Positions 4,494-9,568 of a DNA stretch of 32,000 nt are shown here, piece after piece. Every line of letters starts with the position of its first letter. Position 1 is the stretch's first letter. Source of the DNA: Vibrio vulnificus CMCP6 (GTDB lineage: Bacteria; Pseudomonadota; Gammaproteobacteria; Enterobacterales; Vibrionaceae). Made by a program: the position numbers and the translations under genes. Under the pieces are notes generated by a model. It had not been told where the DNA came from and did no database searches. It saw nothing but the letters and a program-made list of their open reading frames with translations. The DNA is taken from assembly GCF_000039765.1 (NCBI RefSeq), contig NC_004459.3, positions 180,001 to 212,000 of the forward strand, given 5' to 3'.

Positions 4494-5249
4494 ATGGATT
4501 GGATTTCAACACTGTTTCTCTTCTTCGGCTCTCTAATTGCCAACACACTCGCCTCTCTTGCTGGCGGAGGTGCAGGTTTGCTGCAATTTCCTCTGCTCAT
4601 TTTTCTTGGCTTGCCATTTGGTGTGGCGCTAGCGACCCACAAACTGGCCAGTGTTGCCTTAGGGGTTGGTGCCGCCTATAGCCACTTTCGTTCAGGTAAA
4701 ATTCCACTATCGGTGGCTGCCTATTTGGTTTTCACCGGCAGCATTGGCGTTGTGATTGGCGCTCACTTAGTGTTAATGATCCCAAGCGACATTGCAGAAA
4801 TACTGTTGGGTACGATGATCCTTGCTCTGGGTATTTACTCGCGTTTCAAAAAGCAATTAGGTCAACACGAGCAACCTCGTAATAGGCATCTTCAAGGTTG
4901 GCTATTCGGAGGCATTGGCCTGATGCTCATCGGGGTGATCAATGGCTCGTTGACTGCGAGCTCTGGCTTATTAGTGACCTTGTTTTTGGTCCGTTGGTTT
5001 GGTTACGATTACAAGCAAGCCGTTGCTCTTACGCTAATATGCGTCGGTTTCTTTTGGAACGGTATTGGTGGTATTGCAGTAGTGCAAGCTGGCGCACCTG
5101 TTCATTGGCCTTGGCTACCCATTCTTCTCGCAAGCTCTTTTTTGGGTGGCGCACTTGGCGCATGGATGACGAATCGCTACAGTAATCGAACGGTAAAAAT
5201 TGCCTTTGAATTGCTGACTTTTGCCGTTGGGCTCAAATTGTTATTTTAA
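4494..5249 (+). CDS. TauE/SafE (DUF81) family anion permease
   Basis: 251-aa polytopic membrane protein with Gly-rich helices (LAGGGAGLLQFPLLIFLG, GSLTASSGLLV) typical of TauE/SafE sulfite-exporter-like proteins. Confidence 0.7.
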   Translation: MDWISTLFLFFGSLIANTLASLAGGGAGLLQFPLLIFLGLPFGVALATHKLASVALGVGAAYSHFRSGKIPLSVAAYLVFTGSIGVVIGAHLVLMIPSDIAEILLGTMILALGIYSRFKKQLGQHEQPRNRHLQGWLFGGIGLMLIGVINGSLTASSGLLVTLFLVRWFGYDYKQAVALTLICVGFFWNGIGGIAVVQAGAPVHWPWLPILLASSFLGGALGAWMTNRYSNRTVKIAFELLTFAVGLKLLF

Positions 5250-5258
5250 GGATTGACG

Positions 5259-5537
5259 ATGCTCAAAGCGAAAATTGAGATCTATTACTGCCGCCAGTGT
5301 AACTGGATGCTTCGCTCGACTTGGTTGAGCCAAGAGTTATTGCATACATTCAGTGAGGAGATTGCCTCTATTACCCTCTATCCCGATACTGGTGGGCGTT
5401 TTGAGATCCACTGCAACGATGAGCTGATTTGGGAGAGAAAGCGAGATGGTGGTTTTCCTGAAGCAAAAGAGCTCAAACAAAGAGTCCGCGATATCATCGC
5501 CCCCGAAAGGGATCTTGGTCACGTTGACAAAAAATAA
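5259..5537 (+). CDS. Rdx/SelW-SelT-like small thioredoxin-fold protein with CxxC motif
   Basis: KIEIYYCRQCNWMLRSTWLSQELL and FEI..N..LIWERKRDGGFPEAKELKQRV resemble the SelW/SelT/Rdx family. ATG 5259 has AAGGA 6 nt upstream (the ORF track starts at TTG 5253). Confidence 0.65.
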   Translation: MLKAKIEIYYCRQCNWMLRSTWLSQELLHTFSEEIASITLYPDTGGRFEIHCNDELIWERKRDGGFPEAKELKQRVRDIIAPERDLGHVDKK

Positions 5538-5560
5538 GGCAGTGGTGACTGCCTTATTTG
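5535..5560. terminator. bidirectional terminator between convergent genes
   Basis: Perfect 9-bp stem TAAGGCAGT-GGTG-ACTGCCTTA, flanked by an A run on the left and TTTG on the right. Confidence 0.75.
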
Positions 5561-5572
5561 ACGTGCTGGATT

Positions 5573-6130
5573 TTAGCCACCAATTTGGCAGGAGTGTAAC
5601 AGCTCACCTTGTAATGAAATGACGGACAAGGTGCCATTTTCAAAGAGGCCATAGCTAGCCAGTTGATTTTCCCGAGGAAAAGTCACAGAGCCCGGATTAA
5701 AAACGACGATCTCCCCTTGCGGCTCCGCTAGCGCTACATGGCTATGCCCATGCGCCAAAATATCCCCGGCTTTCAACGCAGGTTGTTGTTTGGCATTGTA
5801 CAGATGACCATGAGTGAGAAAGAGTCGAGCGCCTGATTCAAGCAATACCCAACTGTAATCCATCATCATTGGAAAAGAGAGCAACATCTGATCCACTTCA
5901 CTATCGCAATTGCCTCTGACCGCGATAATTTGGTTGGCGTACTGATTTAATTTCTCAGCCACTTGAGGTGGATTATAAGACGAAGGAACAGGGTTCCTTG
6001 GTCCATGATTGAGTATGTCCCCCAGTAAAATGAGGTGATCCGCTCCTGATTGTTCAAATAACGCCAATGTTTGCTCTGTCGCCTCTAGGCTGCCATGCAA
6101 ATCCGAAGCAAAAAATAATTTCACAAGCAC
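5573..6130 (-). CDS. yfcE: YfcE-type Mn-dependent metallophosphoesterase
   Basis: FASDLHGS, LILLGDILNHGPRN, IAVRGNCDSEVDQMLL, FLTHGH, GHSH and FNPGSV align with E. coli YfcE motifs. The start could be GTG 6130 or GTG 6124. Confidence 0.85.
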   Translation of the reverse strand: MLVKLFFASDLHGSLEATEQTLALFEQSGADHLILLGDILNHGPRNPVPSSYNPPQVAEKLNQYANQIIAVRGNCDSEVDQMLLSFPMMMDYSWVLLESGARLFLTHGHLYNAKQQPALKAGDILAHGHSHVALAEPQGEIVVFNPGSVTFPRENQLASYGLFENGTLSVISLQGELLHSCQIGG

Positions 6131-6170
6131 TTCCCCCTAAAAATACTAGGGTATTCTAACGCTGCAAAGA

Positions 6171-6578
6171 CTACTCGTCATCCCGAGCCATGGCATTGAT
6201 CACAATATTGTTGTAGCTGACCATACCAATCACTTCACCATTCTCAATCACTGGTGCTCGGCTAATGCCAAAACGCTCAAACAAACGTGCGCAGTATTTT
6301 ACGTTCATATCCGGCGAAACACACAACGCAGGCTTGGTCATGATTTCATAAATATTGGTGCGATTGGGCGAGCGATTTTTTGCCAGAACTTTTTTGGCGA
6401 TATCGTTCATCAAAACGATACCGAATTCATCATCCTCGTGACGCTTATTCACCACCAGCGCTTTCACCTGATGTGCGCGTGCCAGTGTGATCCCTTGGTG
6501 CACCGTCGTAAGGCCATCCACCACGACAAAGGTGTTGGCCATTACGTCTCTCACTCGAATTTTATCATGGCTATTCAT
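6171..6578 (-). CDS. stand-alone CBS-pair domain protein
   Basis: 135 aa with two CBS repeats (VRDVMANTFVVVDGLTTVHQGITLARAHQVKALVV and IYEIMTKPALCVSPDMNVKYCARLFERFGISRAPVIENGEVIGMVS). Its ATG overlaps the upstream stop as ATGA at 6575-6578. Confidence 0.85.
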   Translation of the reverse strand: MNSHDKIRVRDVMANTFVVVDGLTTVHQGITLARAHQVKALVVNKRHEDDEFGIVLMNDIAKKVLAKNRSPNRTNIYEIMTKPALCVSPDMNVKYCARLFERFGISRAPVIENGEVIGMVSYNNIVINAMARDDE

Positions 6579-6925
6579 ATTTCATCCTCAACCACTTTGG
6601 TCAACTTGGCAACTTGATGCGCCACACCTACGGCATCTTCTATGTCGATTTGAATGGCGATTCCTTGCCCAGATTCGGTATCAAACTCCCCTACTTCACT
6701 GATGGTTTCCAATATATGTCGCGATAAGTGCTCCTCAACCACGAACAGTACGACATCTTTCTGCACTTCCAGCGTGAGGCCAAAAAAAGTGCGTTTTTGA
6801 TTCAAACCTTGACCGCGCGCGTTGTTAATCACGGTCGCTCCAGTAGCCCCCGCTTCTCGCGCAGCATCCAACACCACATCCGTTTTACTGTCTTCCACGA
6901 ATGCTAGAATCAATTTAAATCGCAT
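6575..6925 (-). CDS. P-II-fold (GlnB-like) signal transduction protein
   Basis: About 116 aa with a beta-alpha-beta, loop, beta-alpha-beta layout ([38 protein letters not shown]...VVLFVVEEHLSRHILETISE...GQGIAIQIDIEDA). Three consecutive ATGs lie at 6931, 6928 and 6925. AGGAGG (complement of 6932-6937) favours the third. Confidence 0.7.
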   Translation of the reverse strand: MRFKLILAFVEDSKTDVVLDAAREAGATGATVINNARGQGLNQKRTFFGLTLEVQKDVVLFVVEEHLSRHILETISEVGEFDTESGQGIAIQIDIEDAVGVAHQVAKLTKVVEDEI

Positions 6926-7709
6926 CATCATCCTCCTGTGACGAATAGCGGCGATTGAACCACTGCGTTATTTGCGCGTAGCCCATCACAGATATCATCG
7001 GAAAAAGGCTGGCAAAAGCAATTAAGCCAAACCCATCAATTAATGGGCTTCTGCCAGGTACGGTTGAAGCAAGCCCAAGCCCTAGCGCGGCAACCAACGG
7101 CACTGTCACGGTGGATGTAGTCACACCACCAGAATCATAAGCTAAGGGGATAATCATTCTTGGGGCAAAGTAGGTTTGAATGACCACAATAATGTAGCCA
7201 GCAATAATGTAGTAATGGATGGGATCACCGACGACAATTCGGTAGCTGCCAAGGGCGATGCCCACTGCCACCCCAATGGCAACAGCCACGCGCAGCCCCG
7301 TTACGCCGATACTGCCGCCTGAAACTTGGTTAGCTTTGATGGCGACAGCAATAAGAGAAGGCTCTGCAATGGTAGTGCTAAAGCCGATAAAAAACGCAAA
7401 CAGATACACCCAGTAGTAATCCACCCATTGCAACTGCTGACCTAAACTGATTCGCACTGCTTGTAGAAATGCAGGCTCCGTCAGTTGTATCGCCATCGTC
7501 TCACCCAATGGAAAAAGTGCGAGATCCAAGCCAATCAAAAATAAGGCTAAACCAATGATCACGTAACCAAAACCAAGCAACACTTTCAATGGATTGGTAA
7601 TTGGCTTGCGTAAAATGGCAAATTGAAAGCCAAAAATGATCACCGCTATGGGGACAACATCCAATACGGTGGTGGTTAAAGTGTCGGTAAAGCGTTCGAA
7701 CTCAATCAT
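6915..7709 (-). CDS. DUF1538-like polytopic membrane protein, paralog B
   Basis: 264-aa multi-TM protein with motifs [34 protein letters not shown] and [15 protein letters not shown], and an acidic tail SSQEDDDAI. Its start overlaps the stop of paralog A (ATGA at 7706-7709). The DUF1538 assignment is from memory. Confidence 0.65.
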
Positions 7710-8440
7710 GCCACCACCATGCCGTAGATCATGACGAACATCATGGGCAATAAGGAGGCAAACGCAATTAAGCCAAAACCATCAATCATCGGGTTTCGCC
7801 CCTTAATGGATGAAGCGAGCCCCACCCCCAACGCCGTCACAAGGGGAACAGTGATGGTCGACGTCGTGACGCCTCCCGAATCGTATGCGATGCCGATAAT
7901 GGTTTCCGGAGCAAACCCCGTCAGCACCACCACGCCAATGTAGCCACCAATAATCAAATAGTGAATCGGCCAACCTTTTAAGATGCGCAGTACGCCAAGT
8001 ACTATCGCAGCCCCAACTGACAACGCTACGGTTAAACGCAAGCCGTTGGCATACTCTTCCATAGAGTCTTCTGTATGGGCGATCATGCCGCCTTCCGCCG
8101 CGACTTCTGCCGCTTCATTGGCGACCGCGGTCAAGGCGGGCTCTGCGATCGTCGTACCAAAACCAAGACAAAACGCAAAAACCATCAACCAAAACACACT
8201 GCCTTTTCTCGCAAAAGCTTGCGCCATCGATTCACCAATGGGAAAGAGCCCCATTTCTAACCCAAAGATAAAAAAGGTCAAACCGAGGATCACAAGAACA
8301 AGACCAAAGCCGATGGACAAAATATTGGGTAATGGCTCTTTGAGTACAACGATTTGAAAGAAAACAATCACCACAACAATGGGCAACAAATCTCTCGCAC
8401 TTGCCGCAAACGCTTTAAGTAACGCTATGATTGCATTCAT
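7706..8440 (-). CDS. DUF1538-like polytopic membrane protein, paralog A
   Basis: 244-aa multi-TM protein with motifs [34 protein letters not shown] and [20 protein letters not shown] lies 6 nt before ATG 8440. Confidence 0.65.
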
Positions 8441-8653
8441 CCGCTGTCCTTAGTGTGATTGTCCTTGTTGTAATCATTGCAGAGTTTTTTTCGTTGCGAT
8501 GTGATTCGTGTGAAAAGCACAGTAATAATTGGTTACATTTTGACAGGAATGTGACCTTACTCAGAAACAAGGGCAAGATGAACCATTGAACTATCATAGG
8601 GTTGGCTGCGTACTTATCTGTGCCATATACTAAATGCAGGTATGGAGGCGTGC

Positions 8654-9568
8654 ATGAAAATACTATTGACTGGTGGAACAGGTTTTATCGGTTCGGAACT
8701 GCTGAAAACTTTGTCTTCTCATCAGATCCTACTGCTCACTCGTAACATCGAAGCGGCAAAGAATAGTCTGAGTTTTGCAGACTTAGGCAACATTCAATAT
8801 CTTGATGACCTCTCTTCTCTGCAAGATTTGAACGATATCGATGCCGTGATTAATTTGGCTGGCGAACCTATCGCCGACAAACGCTGGAGTGCAGCGCAGA
8901 AAAAAGCCATCTGCGACAGTCGATGGCAAATGACCGAAGCTTTGGTCGAGCTGATTCACGCCAGTGCTAAACCCCCAGCCGTTTTTATCAGCGGATCGGC
9001 GGTAGGTTACTATGGCGATCAACAAGCTCATCCATTTGATGAGTGTTTGCACGTTCACAGCGCCGGATTTACTCATACGGTTTGCGCTCATTGGGAGCAA
9101 ATTGCTAAGCGGGCGCAATCAGACCTGACGCGTGTTTGCTTATTGCGCACTGGCGTGGTTCTAGCCCCTCACGGGGGGGCACTCAAAAAAATGTTAATGC
9201 CCTACCAATTTGGCTTAGGCGGCCCTATTGGCAGTGGCAAGCAATACCTACCTTGGATACACCTGCAAGATATGGTGAGAGCGATTGTTTTTCTTCTCGA
9301 AACACCTCACGCTCAAGGTGAATACAACGTCTGTGCACCGCATCCGGTAAGCAATAAAGAGTTTAGCCGCGCCTTGGCCAAATCCCTTCATCGTCCTCAT
9401 GTTCTCTGGACGCCCAAGTGGGTGATGAAACTCATGATGGGAGAATCGTCTTGCCTGCTATTTGATAGCATTCGTGCCAAGCCAAAACGCTTGACCGAAC
9501 TTGGCTTTACGTTCCACTTTTCTCGAATTGAACCCGCTTTAAATCACTTATTGAAAGCCAAACACTGA
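8654..9568 (+). CDS. yfcH: YfcH-type NAD-dependent epimerase family protein
   Basis: MKILLTGGTGFIGSEL Rossmann N-terminus and a C-terminal DUF1731-like region. ATG 8654 has GGAGG 5 nt upstream (the ORF track starts at 8642). Confidence 0.75.
   Translation: MKILLTGGTGFIGSELLKTLSSHQILLLTRNIEAAKNSLSFADLGNIQYLDDLSSLQDLNDIDAVINLAGEPIADKRWSAAQKKAICDSRWQMTEALVELIHASAKPPAVFISGSAVGYYGDQQAHPFDECLHVHSAGFTHTVCAHWEQIAKRAQSDLTRVCLLRTGVVLAPHGGALKKMLMPYQFGLGGPIGSGKQYLPWIHLQDMVRAIVFLLETPHAQGEYNVCAPHPVSNKEFSRALAKSLHRPHVLWTPKWVMKLMMGESSCLLFDSIRAKPKRLTELGFTFHFSRIEPALNHLLKAKH

Follow-up and report, generated by a model that had tools for sequence, protein, structure and literature searches.

The 32,000-nucleotide (nt) stretch analyzed here, called the window below, covers positions 180,001 to 212,000 of contig NC_004459.3 of Vibrio vulnificus CMCP6. 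It holds a compact group of minus-strand genes encoding two paralogous membrane proteins of the DUF1538 family (A and B), a P-II-like protein and a stand-alone CBS-pair protein, followed by a yfcE-type gene (Table 1). An earlier reading of the bare sequence, the original prediction, described four genes joined by overlapping start and stop codons. This layout is reproduced in detail: all five open reading frames (ORFs) lie on the minus strand at the coordinates it gave, and ATGA overlaps are found both between A and B (7706-7709) and between P-II and CBS (6575-6578), where the CBS start lies over the P-II stop. At the junction of B and P-II, the Shine-Dalgarno sequence AGGAGG and three consecutive ATG codons (6923-6931) fall within the QEDDDAI codons of B. 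The maximal P-II ORF encodes 118 amino acids (aa), while nearly all of the 120 relatives listed are 116 aa long; the third ATG (6925), 6 nt past the Shine-Dalgarno sequence, is therefore taken as the start. The start of yfcE is probably the GTG at 6124, because the matching NCBIfam profile begins at residue 3. Depending on this start, the gap between the CBS gene and yfcE measures 40-46 nt, and no significant hairpin was found in it (z = -0.24), in agreement with the hairpin-free gap of about 40 nt that had been predicted.

Table 1. Features of the DUF1538 locus; positions are counted from the first nucleotide of the window.
Feature	Position	Strand	Basis
A, umpA-like (244 aa), DUF1538 membrane subunit	7706-8440	-	Pfam, NCBIfam, lysine plus arginine count
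B, umpB-like (264 aa), paralogous DUF1538 subunit with charged C-terminal tail predicted to be cytoplasmic	6915-7709	-	Pfam, NCBIfam, lysine plus arginine count
Shine-Dalgarno sequence AGGAGG for the P-II gene, within the last codons of B	6932-6937	-	sequence reading
Dedicated P-II-like protein (116 aa)	6575-6925	-	Pfam P-II, neighbourhood, profile against solved P-II structures
Stand-alone CBS-pair protein (135 aa)	6171-6578	-	Pfam CBS, closest solved relative 5nmu
yfcE-type Mn-phosphodiesterase gene	5573-6130	-	NCBIfam PRK09453, 259.5 bits against a cut-off of 117
Intrinsic terminator ending the transcription unit, common to the convergent SelT/W/H-family gene	5532-5559	-	folding against shuffled sequences
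Leader/promoter region between A and the divergent yfcH-family gene	8441-8641	-	Rfam and sigma-70 scans
yfcH-family gene, divergent, upstream of A	8642-9568	+	341 bits against a cut-off of 207

Profile searches recovered the predicted domains in all four genes (DUF1538 in A and B, P-II, CBS) and Metallophos_2/YfcE in the fifth. Both membrane proteins match the full-length Pfam profile DUF1538 (PF07556), with E values of 1.8e-70 for A and 9.5e-66 for B. They are 50% identical to each other (E 3e-69) and have long blocks in common, which bears out the predicted paralogy. A is 100% identical to V. vulnificus database proteins, and the family as a whole counts 3,019 representative clusters at E <= 1e-3; no solved structure matches A by sequence at E <= 10. 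One statement of the original prediction has to be corrected, namely that DUF1538 lacks an assigned function, since UmpAB was shown to be an antiporter in 2017 (PMC5484666) and NCBIfam holds models for UmpA and UmpB. These models are the best NCBIfam matches of the V. vulnificus pair: UmpA (Na,Li,K/H(+) antiporter subunit) for A, with 384.7 bits and E 1.3e-115 against a cut-off of 490, and UmpB for B, with 348.6 bits and E 1.9e-104 against a cut-off of 500. Judged by these scores, A and B are clear homologs of UmpA and UmpB, not equivalogs.

UmpAB of Halomonas zhaodongensis was characterized by Meng et al. as a two-component Na+(Li+,K+)/H+ antiporter (PMC5484666). Co-expression of the overlapping umpA and umpB genes rescued E. 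coli KNabc on NaCl, on LiCl and at alkaline pH, everted vesicles displayed pH-dependent Na+(Li+,K+)/H+ antiport, and the two subunits, each predicted to have 7 transmembrane segments (TMS), co-immunoprecipitated (PMC5484666). In that study umpA and umpB alone were cloned, proteins of Vibrio ezurae and V. xiamenensis were listed as homologs, and P-II, CBS, membrane orientation and fusions are nowhere mentioned (PMC5484666). The likeness to the V. vulnificus pair extends from the adjacent, overlapping genes to the individual subunits: A, like UmpA, is the shorter one and has a long loop III-IV, and B, like UmpB, is longer, with an insertion in loop II-III and a hydrophilic C-terminus. What sets the Vibrio pair apart from the published UmpAB is its two dedicated soluble partners and its predicted antiparallel arrangement.

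A scan with one genome per species yielded 80 loci with an A protein of 70% identity or more, 77 of them complete and 3 cut by contig ends. The close-relative searches (a four-sequence alignment and profile A1) were filled by relatives at least about 70% identical, and distant taxa were reached by tblastn against plasmids, by a fused-form profile and by a metagenome scan. The hosts of the 80 close loci include many gammaproteobacterial families as well as betaproteobacteria (Thiobacillus, Gallionellaceae, Accumulibacter). The order A-B-P-II-CBS was found in 75 of the 80 loci, which is 75 of the 77 complete ones. It stands alone in 48 loci and is followed by YfcE in 27. The remainder consists of three loci with A-B only, all ending at a contig edge, and two with A-B-P-II (Thiomicrorhabdus and Thiosulfatimonas), each with a convergent KefC-like gene next. 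In about 68 of the 75 loci, an ATGA or GTGA overlap joins the P-II stop to the CBS start. Outside Vibrionaceae, the genes on either side differ: nadC and ampD adjoin the cassette in one lineage and unrelated genes do so in others. The four genes thus appear as a self-contained module. Such a gene order is far beyond chance, and we are highly confident that A-B-P-II-CBS is a conserved four-gene unit, as the original prediction of one translationally coupled unit had proposed.

Two observations concern individual close loci. The Thiomicrorhabdus (L032:7583-10097) and Thiosulfatimonas (L052:3482-3850) loci keep A-B-P-II and have lost CBS, and the convergent gene beside them encodes a KefB/KefC-like K+/H+ antiporter; such a convergent gene is present at five loci. 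In one metagenome-assembled genome, the B gene is split into four short ORFs (L044:6714-7528) next to intact A, P-II and CBS genes, which may reflect assembly frameshifts or a pseudogene.

YfcE adjoins 27 of the 75 cassette loci, all of them in Vibrionaceae except for one Psychromonas, with a gap to CBS that ranges from -29 to 441 nt and measures 179-441 nt in 5 of the 27; it was absent at all 12 distant and all 80 divergent loci described below. In E. coli K-12 (L093, 2419234-2422601), yfcE (-) and yfcH (+) are likewise divergent; the 1.9 kb that separates them holds yfcF-yfcG-folX, and a DUF1538 cassette is absent from this locus. Since the two genes are neighbours in E. coli without the cassette, inherited synteny explains the adjacency in Vibrio. 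The original prediction counted YfcE as part of the system; given its narrow distribution, the different flanks elsewhere and the E. coli arrangement, we judge it to be a bystander of synteny and not a component. The Vibrio cassette itself sits within this old yfcE/yfcH block, whose interior differs by lineage.

Outside this group of relatives, P-II stays with DUF1538 to a greater extent than CBS does. A P-II gene is located downstream of DUF1538 in the 75 of 77 close loci that also have CBS, in 12 of 12 distant loci and in 74 of 77 very divergent ones, and the association spans Proteobacteria, Actinobacteria and Firmicutes. Five more distant DUF1538 loci, from plasmids and chromids and with 28-39% identity, all have P-II directly downstream, in most cases overlapping the transporter gene. 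Vescimonas, Peptoclostridium and Paraclostridium have a fused transporter of about 500 aa with a tandem double P-II protein of about 222 aa, and plasmids of the Alphaproteobacteria Methylocystis and Chelativorans carry a DUF1538 pair with a P-II of 112-122 aa. The fused-form profile led to a clade in which haloalkaliphiles are prominent and which comprises Alkalilimnicola, Aquisalimonas, Ectothiorhodospira, Alkalispirillum, Nitrincola, Natronocella, Halomonadaceae, Kocuria, Citricoccus and Arthrobacter. P-II was present in 7 of 7 contigs of this clade (Alkalilimnicola, Halomonas sp. 328, Kocuria and metagenome-assembled genomes). The order is transporter, P-II, CBS in Halomonas sp. 328, Kocuria and L092, and P-II, transporter, P-II, CBS in Alkalilimnicola ehrlichii (MLHE-1, L086:1-6273), where genes for a Na_H_Exchanger protein and a cation P-type ATPase adjoin the cassette; the Halomonas sp. 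328 transporter is of the fused type, and one locus with a transporter-P-II fusion is without CBS. The single-domain P-II and CBS proteins of these loci match the profiles of the gamma/betaproteobacterial cassette with E = 1e-23 to 1e-30 (1e-28 to 1e-30 for the CBS proteins of Alkalilimnicola, Halomonas sp. 328, Kocuria and L092) and hence belong to the same dedicated subfamilies. The extra P-II gene of A. ehrlichii MLHE-1 stands 5' of the transporter gene, in an ion-homeostasis cluster.

The metagenome scan added a clade 25-33% identical to A and mostly of gut or anaerobic origin, with 80 loci, 77 of which include enough downstream DNA. P-II follows immediately downstream in 74 of the 77, and a cassette-type CBS was found in none of the loci scanned. 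On the basis of gene neighbourhood, P-II is thus a family-wide partner of DUF1538 transporters and CBS a clade-restricted one. The expectation that P-II and CBS are conserved neighbours of the membrane pair well outside the lineage of V. vulnificus is upheld. Within the divergent set (L094-L173), a tandem double P-II occurs in 58 of 77 loci; one locus (L102) has two consecutive single-domain P-II genes in its place, and three (L109, L129, L131) have room downstream of the transporter gene and no detectable P-II gene there. Tandem double P-II proteins of about 222-240 aa are also encoded at L081:5335-6009, L084:5310-5978 and L085:4410-5078, which corresponds to two P-II domains per fused transporter, with no CBS.

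Natural fusions extend the same association to single polypeptides. Of 150 family representatives, 79 unite two DUF1538 domains in one protein; P-II is fused in 6, a cytidylate-kinase-like nucleotide-binding domain takes its place in one, and CBS is fused in none. In the P-II fusions (P0122 and others), the P-II domain is attached to the B-type C-terminus. The fusion clusters P0121, P0122 and P0123 have several independent members or come from long contigs. P0123 (724 aa, on a 689-kb contig) is an A-B fusion with no P-II and with a C-terminal cytidylate-kinase-like/AAA_18 nucleotide-binding domain, which suggests that the DUF1538 family has recruited nucleotide-binding modules repeatedly. Three further proteins were rejected as fusion evidence: P0271 is a frameshift chimera whose switch lies within YDSGGV, and P0272 and P0273 are truncated. 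Fusions known from single metagenomic gene calls need to be checked for such artefacts. In many long DUF1538 proteins of 600-800 aa (P0160, P0164, P0222, P0230 and others), inserts of 60-200 aa without a family match lie between or around the halves. Two proteins encoded immediately behind long DUF1538 transporters consist of three tandem P-II domains (L089:5920-7095, 391 aa; L091:6133-7242, 369 aa), which could represent a single-chain pseudo-trimer of a fold that is normally homotrimeric.

The architecture of the membrane pair was deduced from the distribution of lysine and arginine (K+R), counted loop by loop in 81 A and 78 B orthologs. The bias is reciprocal and alternates between the two subunits: mean counts in A and B, respectively, are 1.44 and 0.10 at the N-terminus, 0.12 and 3.23 in loop 1, 2.04 and 0.81 in loop 2, 1.99 and 1.00 in loop 4, 0.26 and 0.97 in loop 5, 1.91 and 1.00 in loop 6, and 0.01 and 4.33 at the C-terminus. 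By the positive-inside rule, A is therefore predicted to be N-in/C-out with seven crossings (loops 2, 4 and 6 inside) and B to be N-out/C-in. With these opposite orientations, A and B are predicted to form an antiparallel heterodimer. The number of crossings agrees with the 7 TMS of the UmpAB study. In 123 natural fusions, the first half is A-like and the second B-like in its K+R pattern, which makes them 7+7 inverted repeats. The linker between the halves is 10-36 aa long (median 23 aa), averages 0.39 K+R and contains no extra transmembrane segment; a linker this short and poor in lysine and arginine fits a periplasmic location and a cytoplasmic B C-terminus, the site of P-II fusion. The pseudo-symmetric heteromeric carrier of the original prediction is thereby refined to an antiparallel one.

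Antiparallel heterodimers derived from dual-topology ancestors, such as the EbrAB/YdgEF pairs of the SMR family, the Fluc/CrcB pairs and the DUF606 pairs, have reportedly been described by Rapp and von Heijne. As in those pairs, A and B are encoded by adjacent homologous genes with opposite K+R bias, and the fused DUF1538 forms are inverted repeats; in contrast to them, the DUF1538 units are far larger, with 7 transmembrane helices each, two of them broken. As far as could be found, DUF1538 is not listed among the families of antiparallel paralog pairs.

A structural model of a natural A-B-P-II fusion, computed with AlphaFold2 (AF2) from 24 aligned sequences, has a predicted local distance difference test score (pLDDT) above 90 in its membrane part and a predicted template modeling score (pTM) of 0.73. 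In this model, two helices per half are interrupted exactly at the A-E-P of TTIAEP and at the VTTST that follows YD(S/L)GG. The Gly/Ser/Thr-rich blocks shared by A and B, which had been proposed to be substrate-site loops, coincide with these breaks. E100, D187 and D220 are invariant or nearly so across divergent members. Broken helices with conserved acidic and hydroxyl residues would be typical of the ion sites of secondary transporters, and in the model E100 and D187 at the breaks are likely to form the ion/proton site. A Foldseek search with the membrane domain of the fusion model gave no significant match to a solved structure.

The P-II protein is a divergent member of its family. It matches the Pfam P-II profile (PF00543) with 42.7 bits against a cut-off of 25, has no NCBIfam match and, as a single sequence, finds no solved structure at E <= 0.01. 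A profile of the protein reaches solved P-II and GlnK structures with E values of 5e-8 to 1e-5 (best 9p1x, E 4.7e-8; archaeal GlnB/GlnK proteins come next, at about 1e-6), and the fused C-terminal domain of the AF2 model reaches a Foldseek probability of 1.00 against P-II, GlnK and SbtB structures. The glycine scaffold (GAxGxT, RGxG, GxG) is kept. The canonical ligand residues are taken here to be R38, Q39, K58, K90, R101 and R103 in E. coli GlnB numbering. Of these, only the K58 equivalent is kept, as a lysine or arginine (K/R56); in the profile alignment, the canonical GDG(K/R)IF is replaced by GxGIAF, and there are no basic residues at the C-terminal positions. The base of the T-loop reads RGEG followed by a non-conserved residue, and the loop is a few residues shorter than the canonical one. 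Its core TFFGL (consensus ...KTFFGL...) is nearly invariant within the gamma/betaproteobacterial clade, as would be expected for a docking element. Canonical binding of MgATP and 2-oxoglutarate by this protein seems unlikely from the residues that it retains.

The closest precedents for such a protein are the GlnK-AmtB and SbtB-SbtA systems, in which P-II uses its T-loop to plug SbtA and AmtB like a valve in a nucleotide-dependent manner, as described in the 'valve plug' paper, where antiporters and CBS are not mentioned. As in these systems, a small P-II-fold gene adjoins the transporter gene and is inherited with it, and the T-loop region is conserved. Unlike them, the DUF1538 transporter belongs to an unrelated family whose sole tested member is a cation/H+ antiporter, nothing in the present data connects it with nitrogen or carbon uptake, and it is a hetero-pair or an inverted repeat, not a homotrimer. 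The P-II partner also differs from GlnK and SbtB: several nucleotide and 2-oxoglutarate side chains are missing, the T-loop is shorter, the partner occurs once, twice, three times or fused, and CBS is added as a second sensor.

CBS modules gate transporters in MgtE, OpuA and ClC. Unlike these and unlike cyanobacterial CBS-CP12, the V. vulnificus CBS protein is stand-alone, with its gene coupled to that of P-II, and is fused neither to a transporter nor to CP12. It scores 62.3 bits with Pfam CBS (PF00571) and consists of two tandem CBS motifs that make up one module. Among solved structures, the CBS pair of CBS-CP12 (5nmu, E 1.1e-23) is by far its nearest relative: both are CBS pairs of about 130 aa, and residues 8-127 align along the full 5nmu pair with 36.7% identity over 120 residues. 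Isothermal titration calorimetry (ITC) has shown that the CBS pair of CBS-CP12, which on its own forms a dimer, binds AMP, not ADP, ATP or cAMP (PMC6142219). AMP sensing by the Vibrio CBS protein is therefore a plausible and concrete proposal. The label 'nucleotide-gated' in the original prediction accordingly divides into two parts: it is plausible for CBS, whose nearest solved relative binds AMP, and uncertain for P-II, which has lost most of the ATP and 2-oxoglutarate side chains. As a further candidate ligand, cyclic di-AMP (c-di-AMP) was set aside for Vibrio; most gammaproteobacteria are not known to have diadenylate cyclases.

Taken as a whole, the evidence makes it reasonably probable that the operon encodes an UmpAB-type monovalent-cation/H+ antiporter with dedicated P-II and CBS regulators. 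Its parts differ in strength. Homology to UmpAB makes a monovalent cation and protons somewhat better than an even guess for the substrates of the V. vulnificus pair, and for gating by P-II and CBS, argued from analogy, the case is evenly poised. We infer the Vibrio substrate, the docking of P-II and CBS, their ligands and the direction of regulation as follows. A and B would insert in opposite orientations and pair as an antiparallel heterodimer, a two-gene version of the 7+7 inverted-repeat carrier, with each subunit contributing two broken helices where E100 and D187 would constitute the ion/proton site. P-II, presumably a trimer, would dock through its T-loop at the charged cytoplasmic C-terminal tail of B and gate the cytoplasmic face, opening or plugging it in the manner of GlnK on AmtB and SbtB on SbtA. 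Here, as in many Proteobacteria and Actinobacteria, the CBS protein would supply a further signal, most probably adenylate (AMP) status, so that antiport could be throttled at low energy or under changed ion or pH conditions. The ion-homeostasis context of the family supports an antiporter: the fused clade is rich in haloalkaliphiles, and besides the Na_H_Exchanger and P-type ATPase genes already mentioned, MgtC, ClC exchanger and KefC-like genes are neighbours.

Several findings weigh against this interpretation. The scores of A and B below the UmpA and UmpB equivalog cut-offs mean that identity of substrate with Halomonas UmpAB is not guaranteed, and the assignment of UmpAB itself comes from heterologous complementation and vesicle assays in one laboratory. 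UmpAB is active in E. coli without P-II and CBS, so neither is needed for basal activity. The P-II protein is without equivalents of K90, R101/R103 and R38/Q39, and its ligand may be other than ATP, ADP or 2-oxoglutarate. Finally, P-II stoichiometries of one, two or three domains per transporter are not explained by a simple picture of a trimer on a trimer.

Among the alternatives, the one that survives best assigns the pair a physiological substrate related to carbon or nitrogen status (bicarbonate, ammonium or another small ion), with antiport by UmpAB as a side activity. The well-studied pairs of P-II and transporter, AmtB-GlnK and SbtA-SbtB, all handle nitrogen or carbon species, and many hosts of the cassette are chemolithoautotrophs or methylotrophs (Thiomicrorhabdus, Thiobacillus, Gallionellaceae, Sedimenticola, Beggiatoa-like bacteria, Methylophaga). 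The sub-threshold UmpA/UmpB scores leave room for another substrate, and a membrane fold without a significant solved match does not allow the substrate to be read from it. Against this stand the direct experimental data on antiport by UmpAB, the enrichment of haloalkaliphiles in the fused clade and the invariant acidic residues at the helix breaks, which suit cation/H+ binding. Moreover, the neighbours are genes of cation and pH homeostasis, not of carboxysomes, RuBisCO or nitrogen assimilation, and the cassette is common in heterotrophs (Vibrio, Colwellia, Shewanella, Kocuria, gut Clostridia). A carbon- or nitrogen-related substrate is thus considered unlikely.

Still less likely is a reversed flow of signal, in which the membrane pair, in the role of sensor or anchor, would bind P-II and possibly CBS at the membrane in response to ion flux and thereby control other cytoplasmic targets, much as GlnK bound to AmtB sequesters additional partners. 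Sequestration of P-II at the membrane by AmtB is an established way of signalling, the activity of UmpAB in E. coli without either partner would be compatible with this direction, and in CBS-CP12 the CBS pair has a soluble enzyme as its target, not a transporter. However, covalent fusions of transporter and P-II and the strict coupling in one operon point to the transporter itself as the target, and no third conserved output gene accompanies the cassette across lineages. A five-gene system, in which YfcE would hydrolyse a nucleotide ligand sensed by P-II and CBS, is very improbable: the short, terminator-free CBS-yfcE gap of V. vulnificus and the similar gap of about 45-50 nt in most Vibrio loci make co-transcription likely in the genus, but the model is disfavoured by the phylogenetic distribution of YfcE, the wide gaps at some loci and the E. 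coli synteny set out above.

For the regulated antiporter, a broader and more tentative proposal, to which we give slightly less than even weight, is that DUF1538/UmpAB joins Amt and SbtA as a third major family of transporters that have evolved together with an obligate P-II partner. In this family, P-II, in single, double, triple or fused format, would gate an antiparallel 7+7 cation/H+ antiporter whose fold is new among solved structures, and an AMP-sensing CBS protein would be a second regulatory subunit in many lineages. P-II proteins rank with the most widespread of signalling proteins; to our knowledge, their established direct transporter targets belong to the Amt and SbtA classes only. 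Full-text literature searches on DUF1538 and UmpAB found no link to P-II or CBS. The association is visible in genome annotation, where 'P-II family nitrogen regulator' stands beside 'DUF1538 domain-containing protein', and it appears to have gone unanalysed so far.

If the proposal is correct, the reach of P-II signalling would grow beyond carbon and nitrogen assimilation to energy-dependent control of ion and pH balance, and energy or metabolic state would be linked to pH and sodium homeostasis in marine pathogens such as V. vulnificus and V. cholerae, in haloalkaliphiles and in gut anaerobes. The UmpAB family would gain an architecture that can be tested, with four broken helices in an antiparallel heterodimer, and a testable mode of regulation; the sole published characterization left out both partner genes. 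The natural fusions and the single-chain forms with several P-II domains offer ready constructs for structural work.

The remaining features of the locus concern its transcription and its flanks. On the minus strand, no consensus sigma-70 match was found in the region between A and the yfcH-family gene (8441-8641). A riboswitch or other leader RNA upstream of A was considered and rejected, as an Rfam scan of 5000-9200, including the 200-nt leader of A, gave no match at E <= 1. At the other end, read-through from the CBS gene is likely to co-transcribe yfcE in V. vulnificus, judging from the intergenic gap. The terminator 3' of yfcE has a 12-bp stem and a U-run (-16.9 kcal/mol, z = -3.69), and 0 of 200 shuffled sequences fold equally well. 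The same hairpin serves the 3' end of the convergent SelT/SelW/SelH-family gene, so that it would act as a bidirectional terminator. That gene (5253-5537, plus strand) encodes a 94-aa protein with a CRQC motif, in which a cysteine stands where selenocysteine would, and begins 4 nt after a TauE/SafE-like permease gene (4494-5249, plus strand). The pair formed by the permease and SelT/W/H genes is kept beside toxRS in many Vibrio loci, and ToxR and ToxS are encoded near here as well.

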